A DNA stretch of 64,000 nucleotides from an uncultured Chromatiales bacterium (GCA_964448285.1 CAYUWG010000013.1:10970-74969), one strand, 5' to 3'; shown: positions 3,005 through 59,255, numbered from the stretch's first letter. The notes: generated by a model from the sequence alone, not told the origin. Program-made: numbers and translations.

Positions 3005-3007
3005 CTA

Positions 3008-3844: not shown

Positions 3845-3851
3845 GATCCTA

Positions 3852-6511: not shown

Positions 6512-6516
6512 CATCA

Positions 6517-15815: not shown

Positions 15816-15956
15816 TCAATGAATCGACGGCATTCGTCGTACATCTCATGTACTGGGAATGAAAAAGTGACCTCACGTTGTTCTTTCCTCAACTTAAACC
15901 TCGGTATCTTTGCGTCGTCCTACTCACGATCACTGTACAGTCACGAAAAACTCCTC

Positions 15957-18776: not shown

Positions 18777-18799
18777 CATTTAGCAATCTCTGAAAGAAA

Positions 18800-18826
18800 A
18801 AAGGGCGCGATGAGCGCCCTTTTCGT
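18800..18826 (+). terminator. rho-independent terminator after the TonB receptor gene
   Basis: aaaaaaGGGCGCgatgaGCGCCCttttcgtttt: a GC stem followed by a T-run, 25 nt after the stop. Confidence 0.6.
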
Positions 18827-18844
18827 TTTGTGTGCTGGGAGTTG

Positions 18845-18895
18845 ATTCAATGGAGCACCTTGCGCGAGAGAGCGTCGTTGTTTTGGTTGCTATGC
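18845..18895 (-). repeat. terminal partial attC-like site (R''/L'' half only), end of cassette array
   Basis: gagagagcgtcgttgttttggttGCTATGCgatg closely matches the stop-proximal half of the other inter-cassette elements (gagcgccgtgttgccgtttGCTATGCgctcg). It sits 13 nt 3' of the restriction-endonuclease stop. No matching core-proximal half is present. Confidence 0.4.
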
Positions 18896-18908: not shown

Positions 18909-19598
18909 TCAGCCTCGTTCAAGTCGCTGAATCTCGCTGTTGATCTGAATGAGCACTTCGGGATTGCCGATCTCCCCGTCTAGACTGAAAACAATGAAAA
19001 CCTTTCCGCCATACGTTTGAGTAAATTCTTCAAAGCTGGCTTTCATGCGCTCGGAGAGCGAATACCCACCGAAATTTGCTTTTGCGGTAACAGGTTTGAT
19101 TTGAATCCCGAAAGCCTTGTCTCCTACCCATCCTAAGTAGTCTATGTCCCCCGCATGATCCAGTTGAGGCGATGACTCTTCAAACGTGATGGATGGAAAC
19201 TTCTTGCTCAGACCATCAGTGACGACGGACTTCTCAGTGACATAACCGTCGTAGGTACGGTTAATTGTGAGATTGTAAATGAAATCGATGCAGTCGTCGA
19301 GAGTTAGTGTTCGGAATGCCTCTTGCCATTCCGGAATAAGGAACTCGGTAATCTTGGTATACAGCCGTTCACCAAGCTCTTGCAAACTTTCCTTTGTAAC
19401 CTTGTGCGGAACCTTCGTTTTTGTATGAGCGTGCTCAAAGTACCACTGTTCCCATTCCTTGAATGTCTTGGGTTGACACTCCCTAATGAGAGCCATTACC
19501 TCGCCGACCTTGTGTGTCTTTGTAAGACCCCATTTCCCATTCGCATAGTTCAAGACCATTTCTTTGGTCCCAAAATCCTTGGAGTATTTTTTAGGCAT
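18909..19598 (-). CDS. putative type II restriction endonuclease (PD-(D/E)xK-like), partner of adjacent methyltransferase
   Basis: 229-aa ORF starting at ATG 19598 (track start 19673). ATG overlaps the MTase stop by 8 nt (ctgcATGCCTAA), i.e. translational coupling. Candidate D...(Q/E)xK element GDIDYLGWVGDKAFGIQIKP. Confidence 0.45.
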   Translation of the reverse strand: MPKKYSKDFGTKEMVLNYANGKWGLTKTHKVGEVMALIRECQPKTFKEWEQWYFEHAHTKTKVPHKVTKESLQELGERLYTKITEFLIPEWQEAFRTLTLDDCIDFIYNLTINRTYDGYVTEKSVVTDGLSKKFPSITFEESSPQLDHAGDIDYLGWVGDKAFGIQIKPVTAKANFGGYSLSERMKASFEEFTQTYGGKVFIVFSLDGEIGNPEVLIQINSEIQRLERG

Positions 19599-20904
19599 GC
19601 AGTCCTGATGTTGGCTGAATAATAGTGAAGGCGAGAAACTTGTCCTTGTATTTGTAAGTGCGAACAACGTCAACGTTAACGAAGCCTGACTTGATCAAGT
19701 GTGCGTTCAGGAATGTCTTATTCTTGAGGTAAACGTAGGACAACAGAATCCCGTTCTCGTCATGTTTGTCCTTGTCGAATCTCAGGAAGACCCTCTGACC
19801 CTTCATCTTGGAATTCAGGAACTCCATAGCCTCTTCTCGACGTCTTGGCTCTTCGGCTACTCCAATAAGCCTGATCGTAAGCCCGTTGTTGAGTTTGAGA
19901 AGTTCAGGGCTGAGGATCTCCGTTACGTTATACAACTCGGCTCTTTCTCCATTATCGCCGTTCTCGATCTTCGAGCCGAACTTCAGCTTTCGAGGATCAA
20001 CCTTCTTGTCCAACTCGTGCGGGTCAGTAAACCTGTATGGAAGGGATTCAATGTCCTTGTCTAAGTTCTCGTGTGCCTGTTGTTGAGTAACGAAATCACA
20101 GGAGGCATCACCGAATATATCATGCTGGGAAATCTTCAATTTATTCTTGATAATTGGAGCGAATGAAGGGTTTATTTCATAGCCGATGGAATTCCTGCCG
20201 AGGTTCTTTGCGGCAAGCGATGTCGTTCCGCTTCCAAGAAAAGGATCAAGGACGGTATCGCCGACGAATGAAAACATTCGAATCAATCGCCGGGGAAGTT
20301 CTTCGGGAAACATTGCTAAGTGCTTGTCTTGGCGTTCGCCAGCAAAGTTCCAGTGCCCGGCAAAATAGGTATTCCATTCGTCTGTTGTGAGTTTGGAAAG
20401 TTCCTTCATCTCTTTGCTGACTTTTGGCGGGTCACCTAACTTCTTGAATATGAGAATGAACTCGTAATCAATCTTCAGGATGCCATTTCTTGGGTAAGGA
20501 AATGAACCCATTATTGAGGCACCACCGGTCGTGTTGGTTGTCGTTACCTTTTGCCAAATAATGGCGCCCATGTAGTCCATTCCGATGGTCTCACAGAACT
20601 TAGTAATCTCCGTCCTAATCGGGATAACCTTGTAACGCCCGTAATAAACGGAGCGGGCGAACTGGTCGCCGATATTGATGCAAAGCCGGCACCCTTTATG
20701 GAGAACCCGAGAGGACTCCTTCCACACAAGATTCAGATTGTTGATATAGCTTTCGTACGTATCGTGAAAGCCTATCTGTTTCTCGTCCCCATAGTCTTTG
20801 AGTTGCCAGTACGGCGGCGAAGTGATAACAAGGTGAACGGATTCTGCTGCGATTTCTGTCATTCGCCTTGCATCGCCGATTACTATTTTGTGATGGGTGG
20901 CCAT
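19591..20904 (-). CDS. beta-class N4-cytosine/N6-adenine DNA methyltransferase fused to a C-terminal SNase-like (thermonuclease-fold) domain
   Basis: Motif IV VITSPPYWQLKDYG precedes motif I VLDPFLGSGTTSLAAKNLGRNSIGYEI (beta-class order). C-terminal ~140 aa (LTIRLIGVAEEPRRREEAMEFL...YVYLKNKTFLNAHLIKSGFV) aligns with the staphylococcal-nuclease fold. Start moved to ATG 20904 (MATHHKIVIGDARRM). Confidence 0.85.
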   Translation of the reverse strand: MATHHKIVIGDARRMTEIAAESVHLVITSPPYWQLKDYGDEKQIGFHDTYESYINNLNLVWKESSRVLHKGCRLCINIGDQFARSVYYGRYKVIPIRTEITKFCETIGMDYMGAIIWQKVTTTNTTGGASIMGSFPYPRNGILKIDYEFILIFKKLGDPPKVSKEMKELSKLTTDEWNTYFAGHWNFAGERQDKHLAMFPEELPRRLIRMFSFVGDTVLDPFLGSGTTSLAAKNLGRNSIGYEINPSFAPIIKNKLKISQHDIFGDASCDFVTQQQAHENLDKDIESLPYRFTDPHELDKKVDPRKLKFGSKIENGDNGERAELYNVTEILSPELLKLNNGLTIRLIGVAEEPRRREEAMEFLNSKMKGQRVFLRFDKDKHDENGILLSYVYLKNKTFLNAHLIKSGFVNVDVVRTYKYKDKFLAFTIIQPTSGLHA

Positions 20905-20976
20905 ACTTCCTGAACCAATGTACTGAATCTCAATCACATTTGCTGGTTCTTTGCGCAAGAGAAACGCCACCAGTTC

Positions 20977-21266
20977 ACCTAATGCTCAGCGCAAGTACGC
21001 CGCTGTTATTGCCGTTCAGGAACGATACGTCGGAAGCCGCTTCGACGCATTTCTTCGCTGTTGGAACCACAAACCAATCCGTGAGCAAATCCGTTGAGTA
21101 GCCACAACTATCCTTCCTAAGCTTCAACCAAGCCATATCAACAAGTGAGCGCCGTTGTATTCGCTGCTTTGTGCCTTGTGCCTTCTACCACAACTTTACA
21201 TTTAGCCAAACCTTCATTCAACATCGCCAATAAAACGTGCGAGCGCCGTGTTGCCGTTTGCTATGC
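20977..21266 (-). repeat. attC-like inter-cassette element A (contains an internal tandem duplication of the stop-proximal arm)
   Basis: Left end ACCTAAT is a degenerate complement of the GTTAGGT core. The body has two tandem copies of ..accacaact..catatcaacaagtgagcgccgttg... Right end GCTATGC lies 28 nt before the rsgA stop. Similar to elements B, C and D. Confidence 0.5.
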
Positions 21267-21294: not shown

Positions 21295-22371
21295 TCAAGA
21301 CGAAGGTTTTCGCTTCTTAAGCTGTTCCACTGCAGTCTTTATCATTCGCCCAAATTGCTTGTCCTTCTTGCGTCTTTCGACGTAGGTCATCTCGTGGAAT
21401 TGGGATTCCCTGATCAATTTCATGTAACTCCGATACTTAGCTTCGCTTAGAGAGCCACTCTGAACCGCCACTAAGATCGCACAACCGACTTCGACAGAGT
21501 GCGTGCAATCATTGAACCGGCAGCGGTTCGAAAGTTCGTGGATATCAGAGAAACTGTCGTCAATACCGACGCTAACGCCCATCAATCCCAGTTCCCTCAT
21601 GCCTGGAGTGTCAACCAAAAGTGCTCCGCTGTTTAGGACTGTCATCTGTCGGCGCGCCGTCGTATGTCTTCCTCTGCTATCCTTTTCACGAACGGGATTC
21701 GTTTCGAATGCCTCGCAACCGAGAAGATGATTGAGAAGTGTGGTTTTGCCCACGCCAGAGGACCCAAGCAAGCAATATGTTTTGCCATGTTGCAGAGCCT
21801 GCCTGACTCTGTCGAGGCCCGTTTCAGTTTTGCTGCTGAATGCGATGATCCTTGTATTGATTTGTGCGTCTCGGATATCTGATATCCGTTTCTCCAATTC
21901 CTCGGCGCTGATGAGATCGCTTTTGCTAAGCAAAATGACAGGCTCGACATGGCCTTCATTGACCATTACGAGATATCGCTCCAACCGGCGGAGGTTGAAA
22001 TTGAGATCGCACGATTGCATGATGAAGGCGACATCGATATTCGAAGCGATCATCTGGTATTCAACTTTGTCACCGGCGGACTTGCGACGCAAGAAGGTTC
22101 TTCTTGGGAACATGTCATGAATGATTGCGAGTGTGCCGTCATTGTGGTACTGAACGAATACCCAGTCCCCGACGCATGGGAGCTCCTGGGTTGAGTCGGC
22201 AGAATAGAGGAGCTTGCCCGTTGGCTCCGCTTGAACTTCATTGTGCTCGTCGCGAACGAGGTATCGGTCTCTATCGACTCTTGTGACGCGCGCGATAGTG
22301 CAGTCTTGTAACGCAAGCCCCGCACGTTTCTCTTCAAACCAATTATCAAATCCGAGATCTTCTAGCTGCAT
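21295..22371 (-). CDS. rsgA: ribosome small-subunit-dependent GTPase A (RsgA/YjeQ family), cassette-borne copy
   Basis: N-terminal OB fold, circularly permuted GTPase with G1 LLGSSGVGKTTLLNHLLG and VDTPG, and a C-terminal zinc finger CRFNDCTHSVEVGC. Confidence 0.85.
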   Translation of the reverse strand: MQLEDLGFDNWFEEKRAGLALQDCTIARVTRVDRDRYLVRDEHNEVQAEPTGKLLYSADSTQELPCVGDWVFVQYHNDGTLAIIHDMFPRRTFLRRKSAGDKVEYQMIASNIDVAFIMQSCDLNFNLRRLERYLVMVNEGHVEPVILLSKSDLISAEELEKRISDIRDAQINTRIIAFSSKTETGLDRVRQALQHGKTYCLLGSSGVGKTTLLNHLLGCEAFETNPVREKDSRGRHTTARRQMTVLNSGALLVDTPGMRELGLMGVSVGIDDSFSDIHELSNRCRFNDCTHSVEVGCAILVAVQSGSLSEAKYRSYMKLIRESQFHEMTYVERRKKDKQFGRMIKTAVEQLKKRKPSS

Positions 22372-22416: not shown

Positions 22417-22619
22417 GCCTAACATTTAGCGCAAGGACGCCACTGTTTTTGCCTTTCAGAAATGCCGCGCACGGAGCCGCTATCAATAGACTAATTTCTT
22501 GCGGCGAAGTGCGCATACCAACTTGCGGCAAAAACCGTTGAGCGACCACAACTATTTTTCCCCACAGCTTTAACTGAGCCATATAAACAAATGGGGCGGC
22601 GTGGTTACGCCTGTTATAC
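22417..22619 (-). repeat. attC-like inter-cassette element B
   Basis: Plus strand begins GCCTAAC (complement of the canonical core GTTAGGC) 45 nt upstream of the rsgA ATG and ends GTTATAC 28 nt before the peptidase stop. The arms are mutually complementary (gcgcaaggacgcc / ggcgtggttacgc). Confidence 0.55.
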
Positions 22620-22646: not shown

Positions 22647-24065
22647 CTAATAGCGTTTCACGATGTCATCAATGGAGACTCCTTCAATCAGGAGTTGAGA
22701 AGATTCTATTCCATAGATCCACTCTTGGAAGAAATCACGAAGATCCCGGCTCGAGACGCGCTCGCAAAGTTTATAAAACTCTTGAAAGTTGATGACGCGA
22801 CCTTTGAACTCCAGAAGCATGGTTCGAATGATCGTCCTAAAGGTGCTTTCTCCAACGAGGCGATACAAAACATACAGGGACCAGGCGCCCTTCGTGTACG
22901 AATGCCTGCCGAGTTCTTTCGCCCCGTAGCCGGCAATCGGCGTTTCAAAAACTTGTCGGTCATACTCCGCCCATCGCACAAAGAGATCTCGACTCTTTTC
23001 CATGTCTTCCTCAAAAGCTGCCTCACCGCGAAATGCCCGGATTGCCAGAGCCTCAAAAAACGTCGCAAACGCCTCGTCGAAGTACCGACACCGCTGCACA
23101 TCTGCCGACGGTGTCGCATTCCATGAGTGTCCGATCTCGTGATAGGCTTCGGAAATTCTCGTACTGTCTTTGAATGCGGCCGCCGTTTGCAGGAAGTAGT
23201 AGTCGCTGGCTTGCGAACCCCATCCATCCGGAATTTCTATAATGGAATATCCCTTGAAGCTTTCGGGTAAGCCGAACATTTCGCTATAGAGCTTGATGAC
23301 GTCTTTCGAGGCGTTCATGACTAACCTCGCTCCGATGCTGTCCTCAGGCAGGTGATACACAACGAGTTGATCGGTCGGATTACTCAGAACTGTGAACTTT
23401 GCCACGGCAACGTCGATGCGCCACGTTGGTATCTTGCTTCGGAATACGAACGTTGCATTCTCTGAGTCGATCTGTGAATCGACCAACTCTCCCCCGCAGG
23501 CCGCACGGTAATCCGCCGGAACGGTTGCGGTTACTTCGTATGTGAATTTCGTGTCATTGGACGCTAAGGTACTGGCGAATGTCGGCTTGGCAAGGATCGG
23601 ATAGGCAAACGCGTCGGGACGTAGTAGAGAGTAGTTCTCATCTATCCGGTCCCTAACGTATGCCATCACTTCCGGATATCCGAAGATGAATCCATCGTAT
23701 TCCAAGACAACGGTCGTCGTGTCGTTAGGTCGAAGCGGAGTACGAAGGTTGACGATAACTTCTCTGGCCTGAAGAGAAGGTTCATCACGAAGTTGACCGA
23801 TATCCTGTTTGAAGTGGAGCGGTGTGCCGGTGCGATCGCTTACCTGTTTAACTTCAAGCAATCGGTACAGCAGAAAGGGGAGTTGCGCGTGTGGCTGATC
23901 GGTGATATTGCGTATTGAAAGCGTTGCCAAAATGGAGACGCGCTGCTCTCTGAGGTGAAATTGCACATTGAGTTTGTAGTGCACAACGGCAGGAAGGTCT
24001 GAAGCAGTCGCCGAAGTCATTTCGCAAAGAGAAACAAGTACAGTGATAAGGAATAGCCTTCTCAT
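22647..24065 (-). CDS. secreted M1-family-like gluzincin metallopeptidase
   Basis: Signal peptide MRRLFLITVLVSLCEMTSATA. HEIGHSWN...(18 aa)...E zinc-binding HExxH-x18-E motif. Start taken at ATG 24065 with an aaaggag RBS; the track start 24095 is TTG. Confidence 0.7.
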   Translation of the reverse strand: MRRLFLITVLVSLCEMTSATASDLPAVVHYKLNVQFHLREQRVSILATLSIRNITDQPHAQLPFLLYRLLEVKQVSDRTGTPLHFKQDIGQLRDEPSLQAREVIVNLRTPLRPNDTTTVVLEYDGFIFGYPEVMAYVRDRIDENYSLLRPDAFAYPILAKPTFASTLASNDTKFTYEVTATVPADYRAACGGELVDSQIDSENATFVFRSKIPTWRIDVAVAKFTVLSNPTDQLVVYHLPEDSIGARLVMNASKDVIKLYSEMFGLPESFKGYSIIEIPDGWGSQASDYYFLQTAAAFKDSTRISEAYHEIGHSWNATPSADVQRCRYFDEAFATFFEALAIRAFRGEAAFEEDMEKSRDLFVRWAEYDRQVFETPIAGYGAKELGRHSYTKGAWSLYVLYRLVGESTFRTIIRTMLLEFKGRVINFQEFYKLCERVSSRDLRDFFQEWIYGIESSQLLIEGVSIDDIVKRY

Positions 24066-24099
24066 GTGTCGGGCTCCTTTCGTGTCAATTTTCAAATGA

Positions 24100-24295
24100 C
24101 GTTTGCAGCAACAACGTAGCGGTTTATGCCGCTCAAAGATGAGCGCCGAAGGGAGCTATCAAAGGACCAATTCTCGGCGCGCGTAGGCGCAAGACCAACA
24201 CGCGGCAATAACAATGGATAGACCACAACGACCTTTTCCATAGCCTTAACTGCGCCCTATCAACAAAGGGAGCGCCGGTGTTACTGCTGTTATGC
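24100..24295 (-). repeat. attC-like inter-cassette element C (core-proximal 7-mer apparently deleted)
   Basis: Right end GTTATGC (24289-24295) contains the TAA stop of the HNH gene on the opposite strand. The body is similar to element B. At the left end, the cataacgt found at the same position in element D is missing (aatgacg---tttgcagc). Confidence 0.5.
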
Positions 24296-25189
24296 GTTCG
24301 TTGGTTTGCCGCGCTTCTTCCATTGTTCCTTCTTGAGCCTCTTCTCGAGTCTCTTGTGGCATCTGTCGTGTAAAAGGATAGCATGTGTAAGATCGTCAGT
24401 CTTACCACCTTTGGCGTGCGGAATGATGTGATGTGATGACGAATCACCAAATCGCATCTGTTTGCCGCATTCGCCACACAGTCCATTTTGGCGAAAAAAA
24501 AGAAGTCGTTTTTGCTCAGCATCATGCAGTCGGTCGGGGTCCCTGACAATAATGGGGTGAAGCCTTTTGAATTCTTCTATCATGATCCCAAGGCGATTTG
24601 TCAATGACTCAGAAGTTGTCAAGATTTTCGACTCTTGCTTGAACTGCTTATATCGTGAGAACAATTTTTTGGTCATGCCAGGTGGTGGGTCAACCTCGTA
24701 GAGCGAGAAGCTATTAAGGTTTCTTAGAAATTCCTTGCCAAATTCGAACAACTCATTTAACAACTGTGAATTGTCAGCACGCTGCTTTCTGAGCCATGAT
24801 ACAAGCAGATAGAAAGCAATCGATTCCCTGGGTGAGAAGGCCGTAAGCATCAGGTTGAGAGATGAATGAAGAACATCTAGATTGCCGATGAAGGCTTTGA
24901 CCTTCTTTGCAGGAATCTTCTTTTGGTATGACTTGACCCCCTTGACAAGCGTGTGGAGTTCTAGGTCAGGGAAGACTCTTCTTTGAAAATCACCTTCAAG
25001 TTCGATTAGCAGCATCTCGGCGGCAAGTTGTCTCCACCTGAATCGTTTGTCTTTTCCAAGAAGTGTAAAGAACTTATGTGTCTCACGGGTGTTCTTAAAG
25101 GTATCTTTGAATAGACCGCGATGAGCGCTGATCTTTTCTGCCTTGTTAAGTGGTGTGCCTTCCCTGTAAGCGTAGAAAGGTTTGAACAA
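24290..25189 (-). CDS. HNH endonuclease domain protein (DUF1524-like), C-terminal half of a GmrSD-like type IV restriction module
   Basis: GLCGECGKQMRFGDSSSHHIIPHAKGGKTDDLTHAILLHDRCHKRLEKR is an HNH motif. Overlaps the upstream DUF262 ORF by 44 nt in another frame. Confidence 0.7.
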   Translation of the reverse strand: MFKPFYAYREGTPLNKAEKISAHRGLFKDTFKNTRETHKFFTLLGKDKRFRWRQLAAEMLLIELEGDFQRRVFPDLELHTLVKGVKSYQKKIPAKKVKAFIGNLDVLHSSLNLMLTAFSPRESIAFYLLVSWLRKQRADNSQLLNELFEFGKEFLRNLNSFSLYEVDPPPGMTKKLFSRYKQFKQESKILTTSESLTNRLGIMIEEFKRLHPIIVRDPDRLHDAEQKRLLFFRQNGLCGECGKQMRFGDSSSHHIIPHAKGGKTDDLTHAILLHDRCHKRLEKRLKKEQWKKRGKPTNA

Positions 25190-25589
25190 TGTCTTCTTCC
25201 TTGCTCTCTGGATCGTGACTTTTCAGCTTCAAGTAGAATACGCAGTATGCGTCAAGTAGAGTCTTGTCTGGAAAGTCTAGATGAGAGTACTTGGTAATGT
25301 CCGTATCATCAAGGTCGAGTTTATCCAATAGGTAGTTATGGATAGCGAGTAGTCTCTGTTGACCGTCCAAAACCTCATACTGGCCGTGTTCGTTCACAAA
25401 AAGGACAAGGACACCTATGGAATAACGATTAATGATGGACCTGATAAGCTCGATTTTCTGGGAGTGTTTCCAAATATCCCCCCGCTGGTACTCCTGGTTG
25501 ATGAAAATCTTTCCGGCGTCGAACAACTTTGGGATTTGGGCAAGGACGAACTTGTCAAAGTGTATGTCAGGAACAGTTTGTTTAGGCAT
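25146..25589 (-). CDS. DUF262 (ParB-like nuclease fold) protein, N-terminal half of a GmrSD-like module
   Basis: Conserved VLDGQQRLLAIHNYL (the DGQQR motif of DUF262). 147 aa, shorter than a complete DUF262 domain. Confidence 0.7.
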   Translation of the reverse strand: MPKQTVPDIHFDKFVLAQIPKLFDAGKIFINQEYQRGDIWKHSQKIELIRSIINRYSIGVLVLFVNEHGQYEVLDGQQRLLAIHNYLLDKLDLDDTDITKYSHLDFPDKTLLDAYCVFYLKLKSHDPESKEEDIVQTFLRLQGRHTT

Positions 25590-25628: not shown

Positions 25629-25755
25629 GCATAACGTTTTGCAGCTACCCGAAGGTTTTAGAAGCACTAAACTGTCAATCTGCACTAAAGCTGAATAGAA
25701 GCACGAACCTTCAATTAACCACGTCACCGCCACTTTTGGGTAGGTGCTGTTATGT
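25629..25755 (-). repeat. attC-like inter-cassette element D (127 bp, best-preserved palindrome)
   Basis: Plus strand GCATAACgttttgcagCTACCCgaagg ... GGGTAGgtgctGTTATGT. The arms are reverse-complementary (L'/L'' gcagctaccc / gggtaggtgctg). It ends 12 nt before the stop of the 153-aa gene and 39 nt before the DUF262 ATG. Confidence 0.55.
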
Positions 25756-25768
25756 GTAGTTTTTCTTG

Positions 25769-26185
25769 TCATTCGTCAATCTGAATTTCATAGGTCTTAC
25801 CATCTTCTCCATATACTGTTGCAGTACCATCTTCATCAATATCAGCATATGAAATATGGTCTTCGTTTAAGTAGCCGTCATTTGGGAAGTTAATTTGAAC
25901 GACTTGACAGTCTTGAACATCAACGTCAAGCGTGTATGTTGCAGAGTATCCTGTTTCAGGATTATTGTAGTCGACAGTTGCTGAATAAGTTCCATCTTCA
26001 AATTTACAGTCTGATTTATACTCACTTGTTCCATCGCTCTCATCATTATTTTCATCTTCATAATCAGACGAATTTGAATATGAACTTGAATTATCGCTTC
26101 TTTTTTTGTTCTCCGATTTCGAGGAGCAAGAAGACATTTGACTAATTAAAGTCAGAAAGCAAATAAAAATTATTGTCTGTTTCAT
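25769..26185 (-). CDS. small acidic lipoprotein (hypothetical)
   Basis: Signal peptide MKQTIIFICFLTLISQMSSCSS (lipobox). D/E/S-rich mature region. Gene is AT-rich. Start chosen at the internal ATG that begins the signal peptide. Confidence 0.5.
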   Translation of the reverse strand: MKQTIIFICFLTLISQMSSCSSKSENKKRSDNSSSYSNSSDYEDENNDESDGTSEYKSDCKFEDGTYSATVDYNNPETGYSATYTLDVDVQDCQVVQINFPNDGYLNEDHISYADIDEDGTATVYGEDGKTYEIQIDE

Positions 26186-26192
26186 AAATATA

Positions 26193-26615
26193 TTATTCAA
26201 ATATTTTGTCATACCATTTGGATACGTCATCCCTTATTAAATCGTAATACTTGTAAATTATTAATGCTAAGTCGAAGTCAGCACGTTTGGCTTTATACTC
26301 GTTTACTGTAAAGTATCCATAAAAATTACCTTCTTTGTCAACAACAACAGGCGGATTAGTCCCATAAGCATTCCAAGGCGAATTTGAATTATATTCATTG
26401 CCATATGTTCCGTATTCATTCCAAATGGATTTTGAATTATAGCTATTTCCATAGGTTCCATATTCGTTCCATATAGAATTATTATCATAGCTATTGCAAT
26501 TTAAGCAACCAAGATATTCATCGTGATTCTGTCCGCCATATAAGTGCAAAGTTTGAGCATACGTTGTTGTCTCAAAAGCAACAATTAGAAAAAGAAAAAA
26601 AAGTGTTTTGTTCAT
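26193..26615 (-). CDS. small secreted protein with SIWNEYGTYGN tandem peptide repeats (hypothetical)
   Basis: Signal peptide MNKTLFFLFLIVAFETTTYAQ. Three tandem repeats SIWNEYGTYGN(S/E)YNS. AT-rich. Start at the internal ATG. Confidence 0.5.
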   Translation of the reverse strand: MNKTLFFLFLIVAFETTTYAQTLHLYGGQNHDEYLGCLNCNSYDNNSIWNEYGTYGNSYNSKSIWNEYGTYGNEYNSNSPWNAYGTNPPVVVDKEGNFYGYFTVNEYKAKRADFDLALIIYKYYDLIRDDVSKWYDKIFE

Positions 26616-26700
26616 ATTCTTTCGTTTTACTGGTTCGTTAAAATTACACATAACTACCGTAAGTACGAACACCTTCGCATATACTGCCAATATAGGCGGA

Positions 26701-26720
26701 TAAACGAACATGTTCGTTTA
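26701..26720. repeat. perfect 20-bp palindrome TAAACGAACATGTTCGTTTA overlapping the intI-fragment stop codon
   Basis: Read directly from sequence: 9-bp arms and a 2-nt centre. Located between the recombinase fragment and the first cassette. Candidate recombinase-binding/attI-like site or terminator hairpin. Confidence 0.5.
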
Positions 26721-27251
26721 TTTCGATCCTGTAAGAACAGCCGTGTCTAATGGACTGACGATCTTGCCAAGCGACTTCTTGCTTACGTGCGTATAATTCT
26801 CCGTCGTCTTCGAGCTGGCGTGACCGAAGAGTTCCTCTATGTACCGGAGGCCAGTCCCGGCTTCCAGAAGGTGTGTCGCAAAAGCATAACGCCGGCTGTG
26901 AACTATGACTTTCTTGCGAATCCCCGCAGCAGCGACAGCCCGCTCGAAGACGTACTGGACACTCCGTTCCGACAAGTGCTTCCTGCCGTCCGCGCCTTCG
27001 AACAAGTACTCCATCGGCTGGCAGGTACAGAAAGACTCGCGCAACGGCTCCGAGGCAACGTAGGAGAGAAGGGAGTACATGTCCTTTATTCCTTTCGAGC
27101 CATGCAGGTGCAGGAGCATTCGTTTGCTGTGGCTGTGTTTCCTCAACCTCATCTCTCTCTCCACTGTCTCGAAAAACTTGTCGGCCATGTGTGGCCCCTG
27201 TGCAGGTTCAACAATCAGTTGTTGCAACGTTACGGAAAGAGTCACTTTCAA
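26718..27251 (-). pseudogene. 5'-truncated tyrosine recombinase with integron-integrase-like C-terminus (intI remnant)
   Basis: Catalytic C-terminal region HSRRYAFATHLLEAGTGLRYIEELFGHASSKTTENYTHV (HxxR...Y), followed by VSPLDTAV as in IntI1 (VRSPLDAL). GSKGIKDMYSLLSYVASEPLRESF is comparable to IntI1 [23 protein letters not shown]. Only about 177 aa are present, with no N-terminal domain and no upstream ORF. Confidence 0.65.
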
Positions 27252-27383
27252 TGCAAGCCCTTGAGAAAGAAAATTTCATGGCGGAGCGCACTTGCTAACG
27301 ACACTCATTACTGTGCTTTCCAACTCACCGGTGTGTGAAGAAGGTTACGGTGCAGGCAGACTCTGCTTTGAATCGCGCTTTGC

Positions 27384-28388
27384 ATGAAAGTCAGGTCGGG
27401 TTATTATAGCGGCGTGAAGTACCGCAAATCTCTCATCGTCCTGTTTGGAACTGTGCTGTCAGTGAACCTTGCGTCGTCCCAAGTGCGACTGACGCCGACG
27501 GACAGCCTTGGCGCATACAGCGAGATGACAGGGATGAATCGCAATCCGCTTCCCGATTATGTGCACGGCGAAACGACGGGAGAAATCAACACGACGCGCC
27601 TCTGGATCGTCGGCGGTACGATGGTCCTGGTCGATGTCGGCGTCATGTGGTATTACTTCGAAACGTTTTATTCTCCCCGCGAATCGGAGCGCTCGAAGTG
27701 GCATACGTTCAACGACTGGTATAACTCCGATCTGAACGTCGATAAGCTCGGCCACGTGTGGGGTTCGCAGGCATACACGAACTCGCTCTATCACATCTTT
27801 CGCTGGACGAATATGAGCGAGGCAAGCTCGATGTGGTGGTCGAGCGGCGTGTCGTTGTTTCTTCAGGCACAGATGGAGATGACCGACGCTTTTTACCGGC
27901 GCTGGGGTTGGAGTTGGTGGGATACGGGCGCGAACACTCTCGGCGCCGTCTGGCCGAACCTGCAACGCGTATGGGAGCCGTTGCAAAGCATCAATCTCAA
28001 GATGAGCTATTGGCCTTCGCGCGCGATGAAGAACGGTTGGGTCGATTACGTGCTCAAAGACTACGACGGTTTTACGTACTGGCTTGCCTTCACCGTCGAG
28101 AACTTCTTGCCGCAAGCGTTGAAGCCGTACTGGCCGGACTGGTTAGGAGTCGCAGTCGGATTCGGCGCAGACCGAACGTTCATCGGTAAGAATGCCTACA
28201 ACACCGATCGTAACAATAAGGGACTCGGCGATCAGGAGTGGTACATCGCGTTGGACTATGACCTTCGGAAACTCCCGGGCGACACGCCGTTTCTGCGCTT
28301 TCTCAAAGAGCAACTCAATCTCATCCATTGGCCTTCGCCTGCAATCCGATTCACTCCCACAAGCATTTACTACGGATTGTATTTTTAG
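27384..28388 (+). CDS. hypothetical secreted Trp-rich protein
   Basis: Signal peptide, then W/Y-rich segments (SMWWSSGVSLF...RRWGWSWWDTGANTLGAVWPNL). Family not assigned. Confidence 0.55.
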   Translation: MKVRSGYYSGVKYRKSLIVLFGTVLSVNLASSQVRLTPTDSLGAYSEMTGMNRNPLPDYVHGETTGEINTTRLWIVGGTMVLVDVGVMWYYFETFYSPRESERSKWHTFNDWYNSDLNVDKLGHVWGSQAYTNSLYHIFRWTNMSEASSMWWSSGVSLFLQAQMEMTDAFYRRWGWSWWDTGANTLGAVWPNLQRVWEPLQSINLKMSYWPSRAMKNGWVDYVLKDYDGFTYWLAFTVENFLPQALKPYWPDWLGVAVGFGADRTFIGKNAYNTDRNNKGLGDQEWYIALDYDLRKLPGDTPFLRFLKEQLNLIHWPSPAIRFTPTSIYYGLYF

Positions 28389-29245: not shown

Positions 29246-32200
29246 TTATCTGGCAAGAATCAGTTTCTGTGTGCTGATGGACTGTCCATCGTTGAGCGAA
29301 ATGAGGTAGAGACCGCTCGGCAAATCCGATGGAGGCGTGAAGAAGAGCGAGTGCGAACCCGCTTCGAGATTGCCGCGATAGACGATTGCGACTTCGCTGC
29401 CGAGTTGGTTGAAGACCTTAAGCTCGACGAACCGCGTCGTCGGAATGGTCACTCCGATTTCCGTGCGCTGCGGTCCGTTCTGCGAAAGGACGTTCGGACG
29501 CGGTGCGGCGAGAGGATTGATGCCAAGGTCGGCCAACGTCGTCACACCGTCGCGCGCTTTCACGGCAATCGTATCGTCGCAACTCTCATCGAGCGTGACG
29601 AGTGCGAGTGACGGTTGAAATTCCGCATTCGTAATGGAGAAGCCTGCTTGCGCCGTTCTTCCGACGAGCACTTCCATTTGAACGCGCGTCAATTCACCTT
29701 CAACGAATGGAGCGCGAGAAACGGTAACGCGAATGCGATCGGGAGCGACGCGCTTGAATGTCGCTTCGCCCTGCAATGAGACGACCTGGCGCGGGCTGAG
29801 CGAATACACGTTGAAGCGCACGTCGAAATTCAATTCGAGATTGGGCGCCGTGCATTCAAGACCGCTGCGGAGGAACACCGGAATCTCGACCACGTCGCCC
29901 GGTCGTCCGGTGAGTGCGGCAGAGCCGCCTGTGACCGAGCTGCAACTGATCGTGACTTCCGGTTCTGACAGGAGAATCATCAACGGCACGATCGCTTCAT
30001 AGCGACATCGAGTGTCCATCGCACGAAGCACTGCGGTTGTCGATTGGTTCGCATTCGGTGTGTACCGCACCGTCACCAACGAACTGGATCCCGGTTGGAT
30101 CGTCAAGGTTTTGCTGCTGTCCACCAGCGAGAACGCTGCCGATCCTTCGACCGATAGCGCGAACGTCGTGATCGTAGTCCCGTTGTTTACCAGTCTCGCC
30201 TGCATCTCAACCGGTTCGTTGGAACACGTCGAGATTCCCTTAACGGTGTCTTGTGCGAATTGGTATTTCACGCGAAGCACACGACCCGCAAAAGGAACAG
30301 CGGCTACTTCAGGGAGACATCGCTGATCGCGGACGATAATGAAGTTCACAGAGCCATTGAAGAAACTCAATGCGCTGTCGATCGGCGGAGTCAACCCGAA
30401 CGTAATCGTTTGCGAAGCGCCGGGCGCGAGTCCGAACACGGAGTCGATCGGTGAGAACAAGCGGATCGGAGAATTGGAGGGTTTGATCAACGCTCCGATC
30501 GTCAGCGGAGTCGTTCCCGTATTCCGAACCTCGATTGTCGTCGTGAGGCGCTCGATATCCTCGTCACGCACGTTTCCACCGGGGCATACGGTAATGTCAT
30601 TGAACGTCGCTTCACCCGGTGTGACGGTGAACGCCGTATGCCGGAGTATCACCGATATCGGGAAGGAAATACTCCCGTCGCACGGCGCGGACGACAATGT
30701 AACGACGCCGCTGTACGTTCCGGGATTCGTCTCGACGAATCGAATACCGAGGTCCTTCGACTCTCCTGACTGCAACGTGAATGGGAATTGTCCCGGCGGG
30801 TCATATGCGAAGCCGAGCGGAAGAACCGAGCCATCGGTGATGGTGATGGGATCGGAGCCGGTGTTGTTCACTGTCGCTTTGAGTTGCTTCGATAGCGGTG
30901 TTTCGCAAGTCAGAACATCAAGCGGCGGAGTGACATCCGTGACTGAGAACTGCGGCTTTACTCCACGCCCACGCACGACGAAGGTAACGGGCTGGAGACA
31001 CACGTCGTCGGTGAAGATCAGGTTCGCCGAATGCTGTCCGGTTGCCGTAGGATTGTATCGAATCGGGAAAGCTTTCGATTGGCCTGCTCCAACGGTGACT
31101 CTGAACGGCGATGCGAGAAAGGCGAACGGCGATCCGACCGGCAATGGAGAAGAAGTAACGTTCAAGGTTTTATCACCCGTGTTCGCGATCACGAACATGC
31201 GGGTGGATGAACTATTGAGACAGACGTCGCCGAAGTCTGCTGATGCGTCCTCCTCCCGGACGAGATAGCCGGGTTTGTATCGCTCACCGATGAGAGCGAC
31301 GGGAAGCGTTTGCGTGCATATTCCACCGGAGCCTGCAAGGACGTTGAGGTACAACGAATCGACGAACGGACCGCCTGTTCCGAGTCGCGCCTGCACGGAG
31401 ATATCCAATCGTCCAAGAGAAGGAACCGCAACACCCTGCGACGGGAAGGGCGTTGCTCCCTGGAAGATGGAGTAACGCACAATCGGTGCCGACGCTGTAA
31501 CGGTGATCGGGAGGGGGCTGTTGTTCTGAAGCGTAATCGTTTGCACCGGCGTGCTCGATCCCGAACCGCAGTCCGTTATCACGCCGAAGTCGATCTGACC
31601 GGGAGTGAGCGTGACGCGGGGAAGAACGCGCTCACCCGACAGCGAGAAATAGACGCTCGTGCCGCACGGTTCACCGAACCATTGAACGCTTCCACCGAAC
31701 TGGTTTCCTTCACCAGTCGGTGGATTGAACAGGATATATCCATCGAACGGATTCCCGGCGCCCGGTACGATGACGATAGGCAAGGTGATCGTCGAGTCCC
31801 ATTCGAATCCCGACGGCAGATCCGGAAGTGAACGGAAAATTGCCGGCGCAGTGCCGGTGTTCGTGATGGTCACTCGGATTTTTGCATTCGGTTCACAGTT
31901 CACGAGAGTGACTGATGTGGGGTTGATGTTCGAAGCGAGGAGTTGCTGGCTGAAAGTATGTCCGCGAAGAGCAACGGTAGCGCTCAGGTTGCAGAGATTC
32001 GAGGCGATCGTGAGGGTCTGGTTGAACGCACCGCTCGTTACAGGGTGAAAGCGAATCGCAATGATTTTTTCCTCACCTGCTTTGAGCTGGAAAACGTTGT
32101 TGAACGCGTCGATCTCGAACGGTGCAGCGATGGTTAGTGTCATCTGCATGTCCGCAGTCCCGTTATTGACGATACGGAGTGATTTCGGTGCAGAGTATCC

Positions 32201-35200
32201 GCCGACGCAGGTCGTATCGAACAATTGCGGCGGAAGCGTTCCGGGTGCATTCACCGCTTCGACGAAGAAGGATGGATTCTGGCGCTTTCCAACCAAGTCG
32301 ATGAAGAACACTTCCTGGCATACACCGAAATCTGCCTCGATGCGCATGACGCTCTTGATCGAATCGCTTCCGGTCCGTTGAGCCTGCAAGCTGACAGTCT
32401 GAGTCCCGCCGCCGGAAACGGATGACGGCGCAGTTACAAGGACGATCCCGTTCGGAACCTCATAGCGAAGCTGAGCCGCTTGTGTGTGGTTGTTCGTCAG
32501 CGTGAGACTTCGCGTCGGAAGCGGATCGGTCGGGCACGCGTTGATCAATCCGAAGTCGAGCAGGTTGCTGTTGGTCGTGACCGTTGGCGCGATACGGATT
32601 CCCGTCAGGGTGAACAGCACTTGCTGGCCGCACTCGCTTGCCGTCAGGACGACGTTTTCCGAAATCAAACCACGCTGATTTGGCGATGGCGCAAACTCGA
32701 AGAACAATCGCGAACTATCTCCGGACGGAACGACGAGCGGGAAAGAGCCGGCATTCTTCAGAGCGAATCCTTGTCCGACGGCAGGAGGAGCCGGGAAGAG
32801 GATGTCCTTCGCACCTGAATTGAAAATCGTGACGACGAGGAGGTCGTTCGCCTTAGCCTGGCAACTCAACAGAACGGGTGATCCCATCGTCGTCGCGGAA
32901 AGCGTCGAGCGTCCGACTCGCAGTAATACGGGAACATTGAGGATTACCGGAGGCTGTCCATCGAGCGTAATGGTGATCGTCGTTGCATGAGTGCCCTGGC
33001 ATGGGATTGCAGAAGTGATGATGCTCACCGTAATCGAGTCGTCACCCGTGCCGTTGAGTTTCGAGAGGCGAATCCATGGTGCGGCAGCATTTGCCGACCA
33101 CTTGTAGCAAGAAAGCCCACCCGTGTTGATGAGGTAAAGCTTCTGTGGAGTTGGTGCGGTCTGGTTGACAACAAAAGTGTCCAGGGTGGAGACCGTGACC
33201 TGCGGTACTACCCGCTCGCCAGAGAGGATAAAATACACGCTGGTGCCGCACGGCTCTCCAAACCACTGGACGCTGCCTCCATAGATTCCGCCTTGGCCTA
33301 CAGGCGGCTGGAAATTGATAAACGCTTCGAATGGATTACCTACTCCCGGATTGACGATGACGGGAAGCGTTATGCCTGCGTCCCATACGAATCCGGAAGG
33401 AAGCGCTGGAAGATTGTGGAAGACGGCAGGCTGTGTCCCGGAGTTGATGATGCTGATGCGCACCTTCGCACCGGGATCACAATTGGCGAGCGTCACCGAT
33501 GCCGGTGATACGTTGCTCGCAAGAATCTGCTGGCTGAACGTGTGGCCTTCAAGCGTTACGCTCTGCGTCAGAGCGCATTGGTTCGCCGTCATGGAAAACA
33601 TCTGTGAGAATGACCCGCCGGTTGTCGGATGGAAACGCACGTTGATGACTCTTTGCTCGCCGGCAGGTAAGGCAAACACAGTGCTGAATGCATCGATTTC
33701 GAACGGAGGCGCTATAGCGAGAGTCATGATGAGATCGGCGGTTCCGTCGTTGATGATTCGTATTGCTTTCGGCTGCGAATAACTGCCGACGCACGTCGTA
33801 TCGAACAACTGCGGCGGAAGTGAACCGGGCGTCGCAACAGCTTCAGCGCGGAATGATGGATTTTGCCGCTTGCCGGTCAGCGCTACGGATATGATTTCCG
33901 TGCAGACTCCGAAATCGGCCTCGATGATGAGCGTGCTGTTTATTTGAGCAGCGCCCAATCGGGTTGGCTCGATACCGACGGTTTGTGTCCCCATTCCTCC
34001 GATGGAGGCTGGAGCAGTCGTGAGGACGAATCCGGTCGGTACCTGATACCGCAACAGAGCCGTCTGCGAATAAGCGTTGTTCAGAACGATGCTTCTCGAT
34101 GGCAACGGGTCGGAGGGACACGCGTTGATGTTTCCGAAATCAAGTTCGAATACGTCAGCGGTGACCGTCGGTGCGATGCGTGTTCCTCGCAGTTGAAACA
34201 GAACTTGTTGACCACATCCTGAAGCGGAGAGAATGACGTTTTCAACGATCAATCCTTGCTGGGTAGTGAGCGGTGCAAATTCGTAATACAGCCGCCCGGT
34301 GTCCGCCGGAGGAATGGTCATCGGGAATGCGAGAGGATTCTTGAGGACGAATCCGGGACCGACCGCAGGCGCGCTTGGAAACGTCACGGATGAAAGTCCG
34401 CCGTTGTAAACGGAAACGATGATGAGATCGTTTGCCTTGGGTTGGCAACTCAGGATCGTCGGATTGCCGATCGTATTCGCGCTCAACGATGCAGAGCCAA
34501 CCTGCGCGGTAACCGGAACCGGTATCGTTGTAGGATTCGATGCATCGGACGTGATGAGAATCGAACCGGCATGCATTCCCGGACACGGGAGTGCTGCGGT
34601 GTTGATTGAAACGGTGATCACGCCATTCCCGATTCCGGAAGAAGGTGAGATGTTGATCCAGGGCTGAGTTGCCGTCGCCGTCCAATCATAACAAGCGAGA
34701 CCGCTGTTCGAAATGATCAGCGATTGAGGAGGAGGAGTACCCGGGTTGACGATGAACGGGCTTAAGGATGAAACGGTGACGGGGAATTTTCTTCTCGCAT
34801 AGTTTGCCGTGATGTTCTTGTTGTTGTTCATCGTGACGTTGATCGTCGGGTTCGTCCCGGAGGCATCACCGCTCCAATGCGAGAAGACATAGCACGTATC
34901 CGGAGCGGGGAGATTGTTTGCCGTGAGAGTGACGAGCGTTCCCTGCGCATAGTCAGGTTGATTCGGAATGATCGTGATCGAACCCTTCCCGGCAGGGGCG
35001 ACTTGTGTGTTCAAGGTATATCGTGGTATCGGCGGACCTCCGTATGTGACGGTGACGAAGTAGCGATTCGTCCCAACGGGCAGAAGGATCTGATTGGTTG
35101 CGAACATATCGACGTTCACGATACTCGGATCGGGATAAGAGACGACGCGCGCTGCGGAGATTCCTATCGAAAACGGGAGTGTCCAAGCCATCCATGTATT

Positions 35201-35587
35201 GGTCGCGGCTGCTGCGCGTCGGGCGCGGACTTCGAAGGTGTACGTAATCGGCGGGGTAGTGAATATTCCTCGGAGGTCCAAGACTACTCCATTGCCAAGA
35301 AGAGATGGCGAACGTAGATCAGTGTCAATCAATCGGGCGTCGAAGTTACCCGGAGGCGGAGCCGGACCGAGCATTGCCTCGCCCAAACCACCATCGATTC
35401 CATCGGTTGCAGAAGGATTGATGCCTACTGTCAGAACCTGACTGTTTCCGATGTTGTCAAAGACAGTCAGATTCGTCCGGATATCCTGCGCAGTCAAACC
35501 TTGCGCAAGGAAGAACAACGCCGCTGCAAGCGTGATTATCCGACCAGTACCTCTTTGGTTTGTGGTTCTTGATGTATCGAAAAGCAT
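29246..35587 (-). CDS. giant (2113 aa) T9SS-secreted repeat protein, adhesin-like, Ig-like beta-sandwich repeats
   Basis: N-terminal signal peptide. C-terminal Por-secretion-tail-like domain (..GVTIPTTRFVELKVFNQLGSEVA...GLYLISLNDGQSISTQKLILAR). Internal tandem duplication of about 636 aa (aa ~268-905 vs 906-1541). S/T/G/N-rich composition. Confidence 0.85.
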   Translation of the reverse strand: MLFDTSRTTNQRGTGRIITLAAALFFLAQGLTAQDIRTNLTVFDNIGNSQVLTVGINPSATDGIDGGLGEAMLGPAPPPGNFDARLIDTDLRSPSLLGNGVVLDLRGIFTTPPITYTFEVRARRAAAATNTWMAWTLPFSIGISAARVVSYPDPSIVNVDMFATNQILLPVGTNRYFVTVTYGGPPIPRYTLNTQVAPAGKGSITIIPNQPDYAQGTLVTLTANNLPAPDTCYVFSHWSGDASGTNPTINVTMNNNKNITANYARRKFPVTVSSLSPFIVNPGTPPPQSLIISNSGLACYDWTATATQPWINISPSSGIGNGVITVSINTAALPCPGMHAGSILITSDASNPTTIPVPVTAQVGSASLSANTIGNPTILSCQPKANDLIIVSVYNGGLSSVTFPSAPAVGPGFVLKNPLAFPMTIPPADTGRLYYEFAPLTTQQGLIVENVILSASGCGQQVLFQLRGTRIAPTVTADVFELDFGNINACPSDPLPSRSIVLNNAYSQTALLRYQVPTGFVLTTAPASIGGMGTQTVGIEPTRLGAAQINSTLIIEADFGVCTEIISVALTGKRQNPSFRAEAVATPGSLPPQLFDTTCVGSYSQPKAIRIINDGTADLIMTLAIAPPFEIDAFSTVFALPAGEQRVINVRFHPTTGGSFSQMFSMTANQCALTQSVTLEGHTFSQQILASNVSPASVTLANCDPGAKVRISIINSGTQPAVFHNLPALPSGFVWDAGITLPVIVNPGVGNPFEAFINFQPPVGQGGIYGGSVQWFGEPCGTSVYFILSGERVVPQVTVSTLDTFVVNQTAPTPQKLYLINTGGLSCYKWSANAAAPWIRLSKLNGTGDDSITVSIITSAIPCQGTHATTITITLDGQPPVILNVPVLLRVGRSTLSATTMGSPVLLSCQAKANDLLVVTIFNSGAKDILFPAPPAVGQGFALKNAGSFPLVVPSGDSSRLFFEFAPSPNQRGLISENVVLTASECGQQVLFTLTGIRIAPTVTTNSNLLDFGLINACPTDPLPTRSLTLTNNHTQAAQLRYEVPNGIVLVTAPSSVSGGGTQTVSLQAQRTGSDSIKSVMRIEADFGVCQEVFFIDLVGKRQNPSFFVEAVNAPGTLPPQLFDTTCVGGYSAPKSLRIVNNGTADMQMTLTIAAPFEIDAFNNVFQLKAGEEKIIAIRFHPVTSGAFNQTLTIASNLCNLSATVALRGHTFSQQLLASNINPTSVTLVNCEPNAKIRVTITNTGTAPAIFRSLPDLPSGFEWDSTITLPIVIVPGAGNPFDGYILFNPPTGEGNQFGGSVQWFGEPCGTSVYFSLSGERVLPRVTLTPGQIDFGVITDCGSGSSTPVQTITLQNNSPLPITVTASAPIVRYSIFQGATPFPSQGVAVPSLGRLDISVQARLGTGGPFVDSLYLNVLAGSGGICTQTLPVALIGERYKPGYLVREEDASADFGDVCLNSSSTRMFVIANTGDKTLNVTSSPLPVGSPFAFLASPFRVTVGAGQSKAFPIRYNPTATGQHSANLIFTDDVCLQPVTFVVRGRGVKPQFSVTDVTPPLDVLTCETPLSKQLKATVNNTGSDPITITDGSVLPLGFAYDPPGQFPFTLQSGESKDLGIRFVETNPGTYSGVVTLSSAPCDGSISFPISVILRHTAFTVTPGEATFNDITVCPGGNVRDEDIERLTTTIEVRNTGTTPLTIGALIKPSNSPIRLFSPIDSVFGLAPGASQTITFGLTPPIDSALSFFNGSVNFIIVRDQRCLPEVAAVPFAGRVLRVKYQFAQDTVKGISTCSNEPVEMQARLVNNGTTITTFALSVEGSAAFSLVDSSKTLTIQPGSSSLVTVRYTPNANQSTTAVLRAMDTRCRYEAIVPLMILLSEPEVTISCSSVTGGSAALTGRPGDVVEIPVFLRSGLECTAPNLELNFDVRFNVYSLSPRQVVSLQGEATFKRVAPDRIRVTVSRAPFVEGELTRVQMEVLVGRTAQAGFSITNAEFQPSLALVTLDESCDDTIAVKARDGVTTLADLGINPLAAPRPNVLSQNGPQRTEIGVTIPTTRFVELKVFNQLGSEVAIVYRGNLEAGSHSLFFTPPSDLPSGLYLISLNDGQSISTQKLILAR

Positions 35588-59182: not shown

Positions 59183-59255
59183 GCGGGAATAGCTCAGTTG
59201 GTAGAGCGCAACCTTGCCAAGGTTGATGTCGCGAGTTCGAGTCTCGTTTCCCGCT
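59183..59255 (+). tRNA. tRNA-Gly (anticodon GCC)
   Basis: gcgggaa/ttcccgc acceptor stem. D-arm tagctcagttggtagagc. Anticodon loop cttGCCaa. T-arm gcgagttcgagtctcgt. 73 nt, no encoded CCA. Confidence 0.9.

Follow-up and report, generated by a model that had tools for sequence, protein, structure and literature searches.

An internally deleted relic of an integron-integrase-like tyrosine recombinase next to a probably frozen cassette array

The locus described in this study raises the question of whether a short tyrosine recombinase gene, whose product ends like an integron integrase, is the leftover of such an enzyme, and how it relates to the series of genes that follows it. The window, by which we refer to the entire analyzed stretch of 64 kb, contains on its minus strand an open reading frame of 177 codons (26718..27251), which had initially been annotated as a 5'-truncated integron integrase gene. 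The frame exists as described and its translation contains all of the motifs quoted at the time, including H-x-x-R and the catalytic Tyr, in the segments HSRRYAFATHLL, ENYTHV, IVSPLDTAV, GSKGIKDMYSLLSYVASEPLRESF and GSKGIKDMYSLL. The reported replacement of the Arg in the K-x-R patch is equally evident in a protein alignment, where the hairpin sequence K-D-R-Y of the family reads KDMY, and the space left before the next gene on the plus strand, estimated as about 130 nucleotides, amounts to 132 nucleotides (from 27252 to that gene at 27384). The gene itself is shorter than the frame. It starts with the ATG at 27188 (MADKFF...), which is shared with a called protein of 156 residues (P0001, 100% identical) and with an intact ortholog (P0002), and it ends with the stop codon at 26718-26720, thus defining a remnant of 156 residues (26718..27188, minus strand). 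The TTG at 27251 is a mere extension of the reading frame, which had wrongly added 27189-27251 to the gene, since the 195 nucleotides preceding the ATG are conserved in contig L001 of a related strain. This intergenic region (27189..27383, minus strand), which aligns with L001 at 84-91% identity on the DNA level, is the presumed promoter and 5' untranslated region.

The remnant combines a 20-residue N-terminus of the family with the β-hairpin Lys, HxxR, GH, Tyr and the SPLD tail. In a Pfam search it matches PF00589 (Phage_integrase) alone, with residues 43-158 of the 177-residue frame covering profile positions 52-170. The match corresponds to the C-terminal two thirds of the domain, with Arg I deleted and K, HxxR, GH and Y kept, and the full R-K-H-R-H/W-Y set is present in intact relatives, which in databases comprise 285-300 residues and contain PF13495 in addition to PF00589. 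The nature of the lesion becomes apparent in a comparison with P0002, an intact ortholog of 284 residues and the closest relative, which is 82% identical over the shared part. It is encoded on L001, whose synteny with the window includes genes for a 2113-residue protein, a 252-residue protein and a DUF2279 protein, with the recombinase gene occupying the equivalent position. An alignment including ten relatives shows that the N-terminus is retained (MADKFFETVEREMRLRKHSH in the window compared to MADKFFETVRKEMRLRNYSP in P0002) and that the window protein then resumes at SKRMLLHLHGSKG, and tblastn divides the match into two blocks, which relate residues 1-19 of P0002 to 27188-27132 and residues 149-279 to 27128-26736. 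On the DNA level, the window lacks exactly 384 nucleotides, equivalent to 128 codons and in frame, which are found at 10059-10442 of L001. The junction of this deletion, as defined by protein and DNA alignments and by tblastn, is located on the minus strand between 27131 and 27130 (27131|27130), and it concerns codons 20-148 of P0002. With the first 19-20 codons kept ahead of it, the deletion has removed the entire SAM-like core-binding domain together with the catalytic Arg I, which resides in the motif GLRVGE. Since the same allele recurs in three further assemblies (L003-L005) with 99.4-100% identity, the deletion is not an assembly artefact. Judged by these alignments, the gene is an internally deleted copy and not the outcome of a 5' truncation. 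The initial annotation of a lost N-terminal half does not hold in this respect, as the gene still has its true N-terminus and upstream region and it is 128 internal codons that are missing; no displaced N-terminal half was found in the three minus-strand frames translated over 26700-27500. Concerning the origin of the deletion, an ACAGC pentamer flanks both of its ends, yet the window keeps both copies, and a microhomology-mediated event was rejected, as no collapse of the pair is evident.

The part of the protein that is left has deteriorated as well. It deviates at 11 of 66 positions that are invariant in the family, compared to 0-5 in leave-one-out controls and a single position in P0002, and the changed residues include the conversion of KDRY to KDMY and of HSLRH to HSRRY, the latter adjoining the catalytic Arg. 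Based on the loss of the core-binding domain and Arg I and on the changed invariant residues, the remnant is predicted to be a decaying, catalytically dead pseudogene of the tyrosine recombinase of a cassette array, in line with the initial assessment of the gene as probably inactive. Alternatively, the in-frame product of 156 residues could have retained a function, such as that of a DNA-binding regulator or a dominant-negative subunit, in which case the gene would not be a pseudogene. The preserved frame, the intact start codon and upstream region, the presence of the allele in several samples and an overall dN/dS of 0.13 between the remnant and P0002 are all features that a functional protein would display, but the low ratio mirrors a long shared history (dS 0.92) and not the recent lineage, and the protein in question is devoid of its core-binding domain and Arg I and has lost invariant residues including the hairpin Arg and neighbors of the catalytic Arg. 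Since another member of the family, in locus L095, is broken as well, the decay of the recombinase also recurs, and we consider a persisting function very improbable. In L095 (9473-10342), the gene is split into two open reading frames encoding an N-terminal part of 141 and a C-terminal part of 113 residues, the attI-like site described below is conserved, and the region downstream contains no more than a few small open reading frames. The two alleles found in the window and L001 are old, as reflected in a dS of 0.92 in the retained parts of the recombinase compared to 0.04-0.13 in flanking genes. The divergence between both sequences climbs steeply toward the recombinase (26718-27383 in the window and 9804-10855 in L001), with the attI region being 68% identical, which suggests either that the alleles are old or that lineages have exchanged the entire platform.

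Whether the gene should be considered as an integron integrase depends on how this class is delimited. IntI proteins are defined by an additional domain (PMC9024848, PMC9668308), which comprises about 35-55 residues near patch III with the I2 helix and also serves their detection by software, with IntegronFinder using the combination of PF00589 and intI_Cterm as criterion. This domain was described as necessary for activity (Messier and Roy, 2001, as cited in PMC9668308), and the acquisition of the I2 helix as the key innovation that has enabled the recombination of single-stranded attC sites (PMC4792948, PMC7790495). Among NCBIfam profiles, the remnant scores highest on the integron integrase profile TIGR02249 (82.2 bits, profile positions 233-314), compared to 76 bits for XerC and 68 bits for XerD, with all values far below the respective cutoffs. 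Five intact relatives reach 222-242 bits on TIGR02249, compared to a cutoff of 265, and 175-195 bits on the XerC and XerD profiles (cutoffs of 335 for TIGR02224 and 330 for TIGR02225), thus about 40-50 bits less. Their match to TIGR02249 is divided into two parts. The part that is listed extends to profile position 178-180, and in conjunction with the match of the remnant at 233-314, the profile region in between appears to be skipped. The intact relatives also pass the cutoff of NF040815 (recomb_XerA_Arch) with 226-236 compared to 220 bits, and the remnant obtains 73 bits, as expected for a fragment, but this profile describes an archaeal XerA equivalog, and its passing thus says little on function. 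The NCBI product name of the relatives, 'site-specific tyrosine recombinase/integron integrase', is that of NF040815.

The same relationship is evident on a structural level. Among solved structures, the best match by sequence is VchIntIA (2A3V, 157 bits), where residues 2-180 align with residues 2-180 of P0002 and residues 238-318 with 196-276, leaving 15 residues in a place where IntI contains 57 (181-237), which constitute its additional, I2-containing domain. The remnant itself reads LRESFCTCQPMEYLFEG in this region, with no insertion. A Foldseek search with an AF2 model of P0002 (pLDDT 76.6) returns 2A3V in first place (E 2e-16), and the absence of a helix at the I2 position of this model constitutes weak evidence in light of the same pLDDT and of values below 50 for the loop 192-202. 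The distance between the K-x-R hairpin and HxLRH comprises 58-59 residues in the family and in other short relatives, 62 and 66 residues in E. coli XerC and XerD and about 100 residues in most of the sampled canonical IntI proteins in which the motif search worked. In a distance-based neighbor-joining tree calculated from 271 columns after removal of those of the insertion and rooted on E. coli XerC/D, canonical IntI proteins are monophyletic in 100 of 100 bootstraps, and so is the family, which is placed outside IntI equally often.

The initial annotation had regarded the S-P-L-D tail as a mark of IntI proteins over XerC/D. The tail is indeed absent from E. coli XerC/D and present in 21 of 22 sampled canonical IntI proteins, but it also occurs in 13 of 13 members of the family and in no fewer than 27 further short recombinases without insertion, and it is thus not specific for IntI. 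At least three of these tail-bearing short proteins are linked to IS91 (L015, L022, L030), where the next gene encodes an IS91-type transposase with a zinc-finger N-terminus. Although the IS91-associated recombinases resemble the family in being short, insertion-less and SPLD-tailed and in falling into the same broad assemblage of the tree, the family forms a separate clade in 100 of 100 bootstraps, and no IS91-type transposase is found near the remnant in the window, where the downstream genes encode small secreted proteins and a GmrSD-like pair. XerC, XerD and the archaeal XerA are similar in their size, their two domains and the missing insertion, but the family shares 29.5% identity with E. 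coli XerC/D compared to 37.6% with IntI, Xer proteins lack the tail, and the family is located next to an attC array and not a dif site. With canonical integrases such as IntI1 and VchIntIA/IntI4, it has in common a collinear N-terminal PF13495 domain, the catalytic motifs and the tail. From these comparisons, the family can be described as resembling IntI in its two halves as well as in the SPLD tail, yet without the defining feature of IntI. The proposed IntI identity thus stands in so far as the best profile and the best structure are those of IntI and not of XerC/D, and it fails with respect to the IntI-specific domain, the cutoff and the clade; likewise, a generic XerD without IntI signature, which had been named as the refuting outcome, describes the protein correctly in the absence of the IntI-specific domain but not in its closer proximity to IntI than to Xer. 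That the fragment is a canonical IntI gene which has lost its 5' half by truncation, as might be concluded from its best NCBIfam match (TIGR02249, 82 compared to 76 bits for XerC), its SPLD tail and the adjoining cassette array, is barely conceivable in light of the syntenic intact ortholog, which refutes it by revealing a retained N-terminus and upstream region and an internal deletion, and of intact orthologs that are without the IntI domain, below the TIGR02249 cutoff and outside the IntI clade in 100 of 100 bootstraps.

A second feature that relates the family to integrons concerns the region directly 3' of the stop codon, where five loci (the window, L001, L088, L093 and L095) share an attI-like architecture. 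A palindrome of 14 bp, either ACGACATATGTCGT or a variant of it with compensated changes, adjoins the stop codon and is followed by a spacer of about 25 nucleotides, a second palindrome, 9-10 further nucleotides and a GTTATGY core, which is located 66-68 nucleotides from the stop codon in all five loci. The palindromes are of the ACGACAT/ATGTCGT type, and the geometry is kept across loci with different flanking genes. In the window, the attI-like site occupies 26648..26717 on the minus strand. Its first palindrome (ACGAACATGTTCGT, 26717-26704) directly adjoins the stop codon, the second is located at 26678-26664, and the core, which reads GTTATGT, at 26654-26648. The window and L001 can be aligned to just past this core and then continue with unrelated cassettes, encoding small secreted proteins in the window and an ion channel in L001, which is the pattern expected of insertion at an attI.

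In integrons, attC sites are imperfect palindromes with RYYYAAC and GTTRRRY ends and a structure-conserved stem, which are located between unrelated genes. Hairpins of this kind are found in the intergenic regions downstream of the recombinase in L088, the locus of the relative P0076 on a 4.5-Mb contig, in the order R'' GCCTAAC, AA, a variable 11-bp stem, GACGCTC...CACGRC, the complementary stem, NGGAC and R' GTTAGGC. When 15 such sites, taken from L088 and L086, are aligned, pairing extends to 91% of cells, compensatory changes occur in 9 of the 11 stem pairs, and none of 500 shuffles attains the observed covariation. A covariance model built exclusively from these 15 sites (R1), with no contribution from the window, returns exactly three matches when run with filters off over the 64 kb, all of which are intergenic, belong to the minus strand and follow the remnant. 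With a further model (R2), a fourth site is recovered, which did not belong to the training set of R2; the other three are part of this set but were found independently by R1, and the E-values of both models are to be taken as rough. The window thus contains three matches of R1 and one of R2, besides two degenerate copies.

Matches outside the training sets were also obtained in L086, L089, L091 and L093, and in each case they follow the recombinase gene and have its orientation. Each of the six loci with at least 5 kb of downstream sequence (the window, L086, L088, L089, L091 and L093) contains 2-12 sites downstream of the gene on its strand and no match of R1 or R2 upstream of it, and in the five loci besides the window, an intact relative stands at the head of a co-directional array with up to 12 attC sites. 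The upstream genes are different in each locus. Many contigs end 0-2 kb downstream of the gene, as would be expected beside repeats, and the relatives returned by a scan of genome contigs all share 53% identity or less. The fixed order, strand and distance of gene, attI and array across loci lead us to consider this unit as real. R2 shows no matches in about 1 Mb of more distant recombinase loci, and neither model finds sites in distant short-type loci or in the loci of canonical IntI, a result that says nothing on canonical attC sites since both models are specific to one attC sequence family. Two loci, L032 and L045, which a heuristic attC finder had suggested as arrays, were dismissed as false positives, as their maps show tightly packed large genes.

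The attC-like sites of the family share with their canonical counterparts the R''/R' cores and a stem that is conserved in structure and variable in sequence. They differ in the conserved inner motifs, in an asymmetric internal loop with 2 versus 5 nucleotides and in the lack of obvious bulged bases within the first 11 bp of the stem. The inner motifs, GACGCTC following the 5' stem and CACGRC preceding the 3' stem, are found in the sites of the window, L088, L086, L091 and L093, and they are resembled by the half-site ACGAC of the attI palindrome. They could provide a sequence-specific binding element that replaces the structural recognition by I2.

In the window, the array extends over about 8 kb from approximately 26650 to 18790 and comprises five cassettes, with every open reading frame from 26615 to 18909 located on the strand of the remnant, a lower and variable GC content and repeats between the reading frames. 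The first cassette (25769..26615, minus strand) contains two small low-GC reading frames (26193-26615 and 25769 to about 26184) with N-termini resembling signal peptides or lipoproteins and no Pfam family above cutoff; the former, encoding a signal-peptide protein, harbors three tandem 48-nt repeats (26359-26502) which translate into a repeated NS..WNEYGTYGN. It is followed by attC-like site 1 (25629..25755, minus strand; R'' ACATAAC, R' GTTATGC), which is detected with 14 bits by R1 (E 0.47) and with 34 bits by R2, where it belongs to the training set, and which is also defined by its fold. Cassette 2 (24290..25589, minus strand) encodes a type IV restriction-like pair consisting of a GmrSD_N protein (25146-25589, 147 residues) and an HNH protein (24290-25189, 299 residues), whose reading frames overlap by 44 nucleotides and could represent either two genes or one gene split by a frameshift. 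Site 2 (24094..24295, minus strand; R'' GCATAAC, a degenerate R' GTCATTT; R1 18.5 bits, E 0.048) and site 3 (22417..22619, minus strand; R'' GTATAAC, R' GTTAGGC; R1 23.1 bits, E 0.0046) are of a long type and enclose cassette 3 (22647..24095, minus strand), which by domain search encodes an M1-peptidase-like protein of 482 residues. Cassette 4 (21295..22371, minus strand), equally assigned by domain search, encodes an RsgA-type GTPase of 358 residues, which is located between two attC-like sites; RsgA-type GTPases are normally housekeeping factors of ribosome assembly. The degenerate site 4 (20979..21172, minus strand; R'' ACAAAGC, R' ATTAGGT) was matched by R2 at 21172-21011 (23 bits, E 0.019) outside its training set, and its 5' arm is partially duplicated at 21241-21266. 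R boxes are thus degenerate at some of the sites in the window. Cassette 5 (18909..20970, minus strand) combines a fusion of an N6/N4 DNA methylase with an SNase (19591-20970) and an MjaI-type restriction endonuclease (18909-19673). Behind it, a degenerate attC 5' arm (18790..18895, minus strand; GCATAGC-A-ACCAAAACAAC-GACGCTC), for which no matching 3' arm was found, presumably marks where the array ends, next to the terminator that belongs to a convergent gene on the plus strand. No other recombinase was found in the window by tblastn, and the initial notion of an array that can no longer shuffle by itself agrees with the predicted death of its recombinase. We thus regard the array, with its five cassettes and two restriction-type defence modules, as probably frozen.

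Collectively, these observations make it likely that the remnant is the pseudogene of the array's own recombinase, an IntI-like protein without I2 that has suffered an internal deletion, leaving its cassettes frozen. In an intact locus, the recombinase gene would be followed by the fixed attI-like site and by genes that are unrelated and mostly co-directional, with imperfect hairpin sites between them that have an R'' ending in TAAC, a covarying stem and R' GTTAGGC. By analogy with integrons, we infer that the recombinase acts on its array, where it would insert and excise cassettes by recombining a folded attC with attI at G|TT. In the window, the in-frame deletion of 384 nucleotides would have abolished catalysis by removing the core-binding domain and Arg I, the remainder of the protein would then have gathered substitutions at invariant positions, and the five cassettes would have been placed beyond rearrangement by their own enzyme.

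The main competing explanation assumes a generic Xer-like or mobile-element recombinase that happens to reside beside a CALIN, a cluster of attC sites without integron integrase, whose cassettes are, or once were, moved by a canonical IntI located elsewhere in the genome. IntegronFinder rules would probably classify the locus in this way, as a CALIN with a nearby non-IntI recombinase, and four recombinases detected near attC sites in a previous study, which lacked intI_Cterm, fell between IntI and Xer and were accompanied by fewer than three attC sites each, were concluded not to be IntI (Cury et al., 2016, PMC4889954). The absence of the I2 domain and the association of more distant short relatives with IS91 transposases instead of arrays would both comply with such an arrangement. 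It does not, however, account for six loci that share the order and strand of the gene, an attI-like site at fixed distance and the attC array next to unrelated upstream genes, for the very frequent contig breaks shortly behind the gene, which would be expected beside repeats, or for the likeness of the ACGAC half-site to the motifs in the attC arms. In contrast to a CALIN, both the recombinase gene and the attI-like site are here conserved as components of the locus, and we thus consider a chance neighborhood unlikely and prefer to view the remnant as derived from the recombinase of the array.

The organization of these loci, with a cluster of attC sites between unrelated genes and an attI-like site next to gene and array, corresponds to that of integrons. 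In particular, it resembles integrons whose gene, attI and array share a strand and whose attI closely follows the stop codon (PMC9668308, PMC4889954), although the integrases of the latter are reported to contain the IntI-specific domain that is missing in the family. The existence of IntI-like proteins without insertion is in accordance with the integron-like subgroup of Smyshlyaev et al., 2021 (PMC8138268), where, in the sections considered here, the insertion 'is not fully conserved' and is called essential for integron function, and where the same sections describe no cassette arrays for insertion-less members. Within the incomplete part of the literature covered, no account was found of an attC array with an insertion-less IntI-like recombinase at its head. 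As a tentative proposal, with the balance slightly against it, Bacteroidota-type genomes might contain a lineage of chromosomal integrons whose integrase, represented by the family, never had an I2 and where an IntI-like enzyme of the size of Xer recombines attC hairpins with a palindrome-bearing attI, perhaps helped by the conserved motifs inside its attC sites. Such a lineage would represent either a surviving stage of integron evolution that precedes I2 or an independent solution to hairpin recombination. If its enzymes were active, many 'CALINs' may be complete integrons that are missed by current tools, the requirement for I2 could be directly tested with natural proteins, and the order of events at the origin of integrons, with either arrays or I2 coming first, would become addressable. 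The pseudogene itself is ordinary, and it is the fixed link of the family with attC arrays in several unrelated chromosomal contexts that provides the interesting lead.

Several further properties were observed in the arrays and in the remainder of the window. The long attC type of about 200 nucleotides (22417-22619 and 24094-24295 in the window, 14019-14230 in L093 and 15762-15922 in L091) can be aligned over its full length across organisms, including its central region, and on this basis appears unusually conserved for attC sites. When the whole repeats are folded as single hairpins, z-scores are near 0, and it is the pairing of the outer R boxes and the stem alone that is supported. In L089, three genes of IS110-family (DEDD) transposases reside inside the array (10952-17560), two of which abut attC matches (15489-15599 and 17611-17726), with one located directly after the recombinase stop codon, a placement that is reminiscent of attC-targeting IS1111-type elements. 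A long run of plus-strand genes (276-18776) has a GC content of 0.43-0.53, compared to 0.53-0.57 in the right half of the window. Its last gene (15819-18776), which encodes an outer-membrane protein resembling TonB-dependent receptors, converges on the end of the array. On the minus strand, 29246-35587 encodes the protein of 2113 residues, which contains internally repeated Ig-like modules of the ASH/HYDIN type and is strongly conserved, with a dN of 0.003 and a dS of 0.042 relative to its counterpart in the syntenic strain. The single Rfam match in the window is a tRNA gene on the plus strand (59183-59255, 70 bits).
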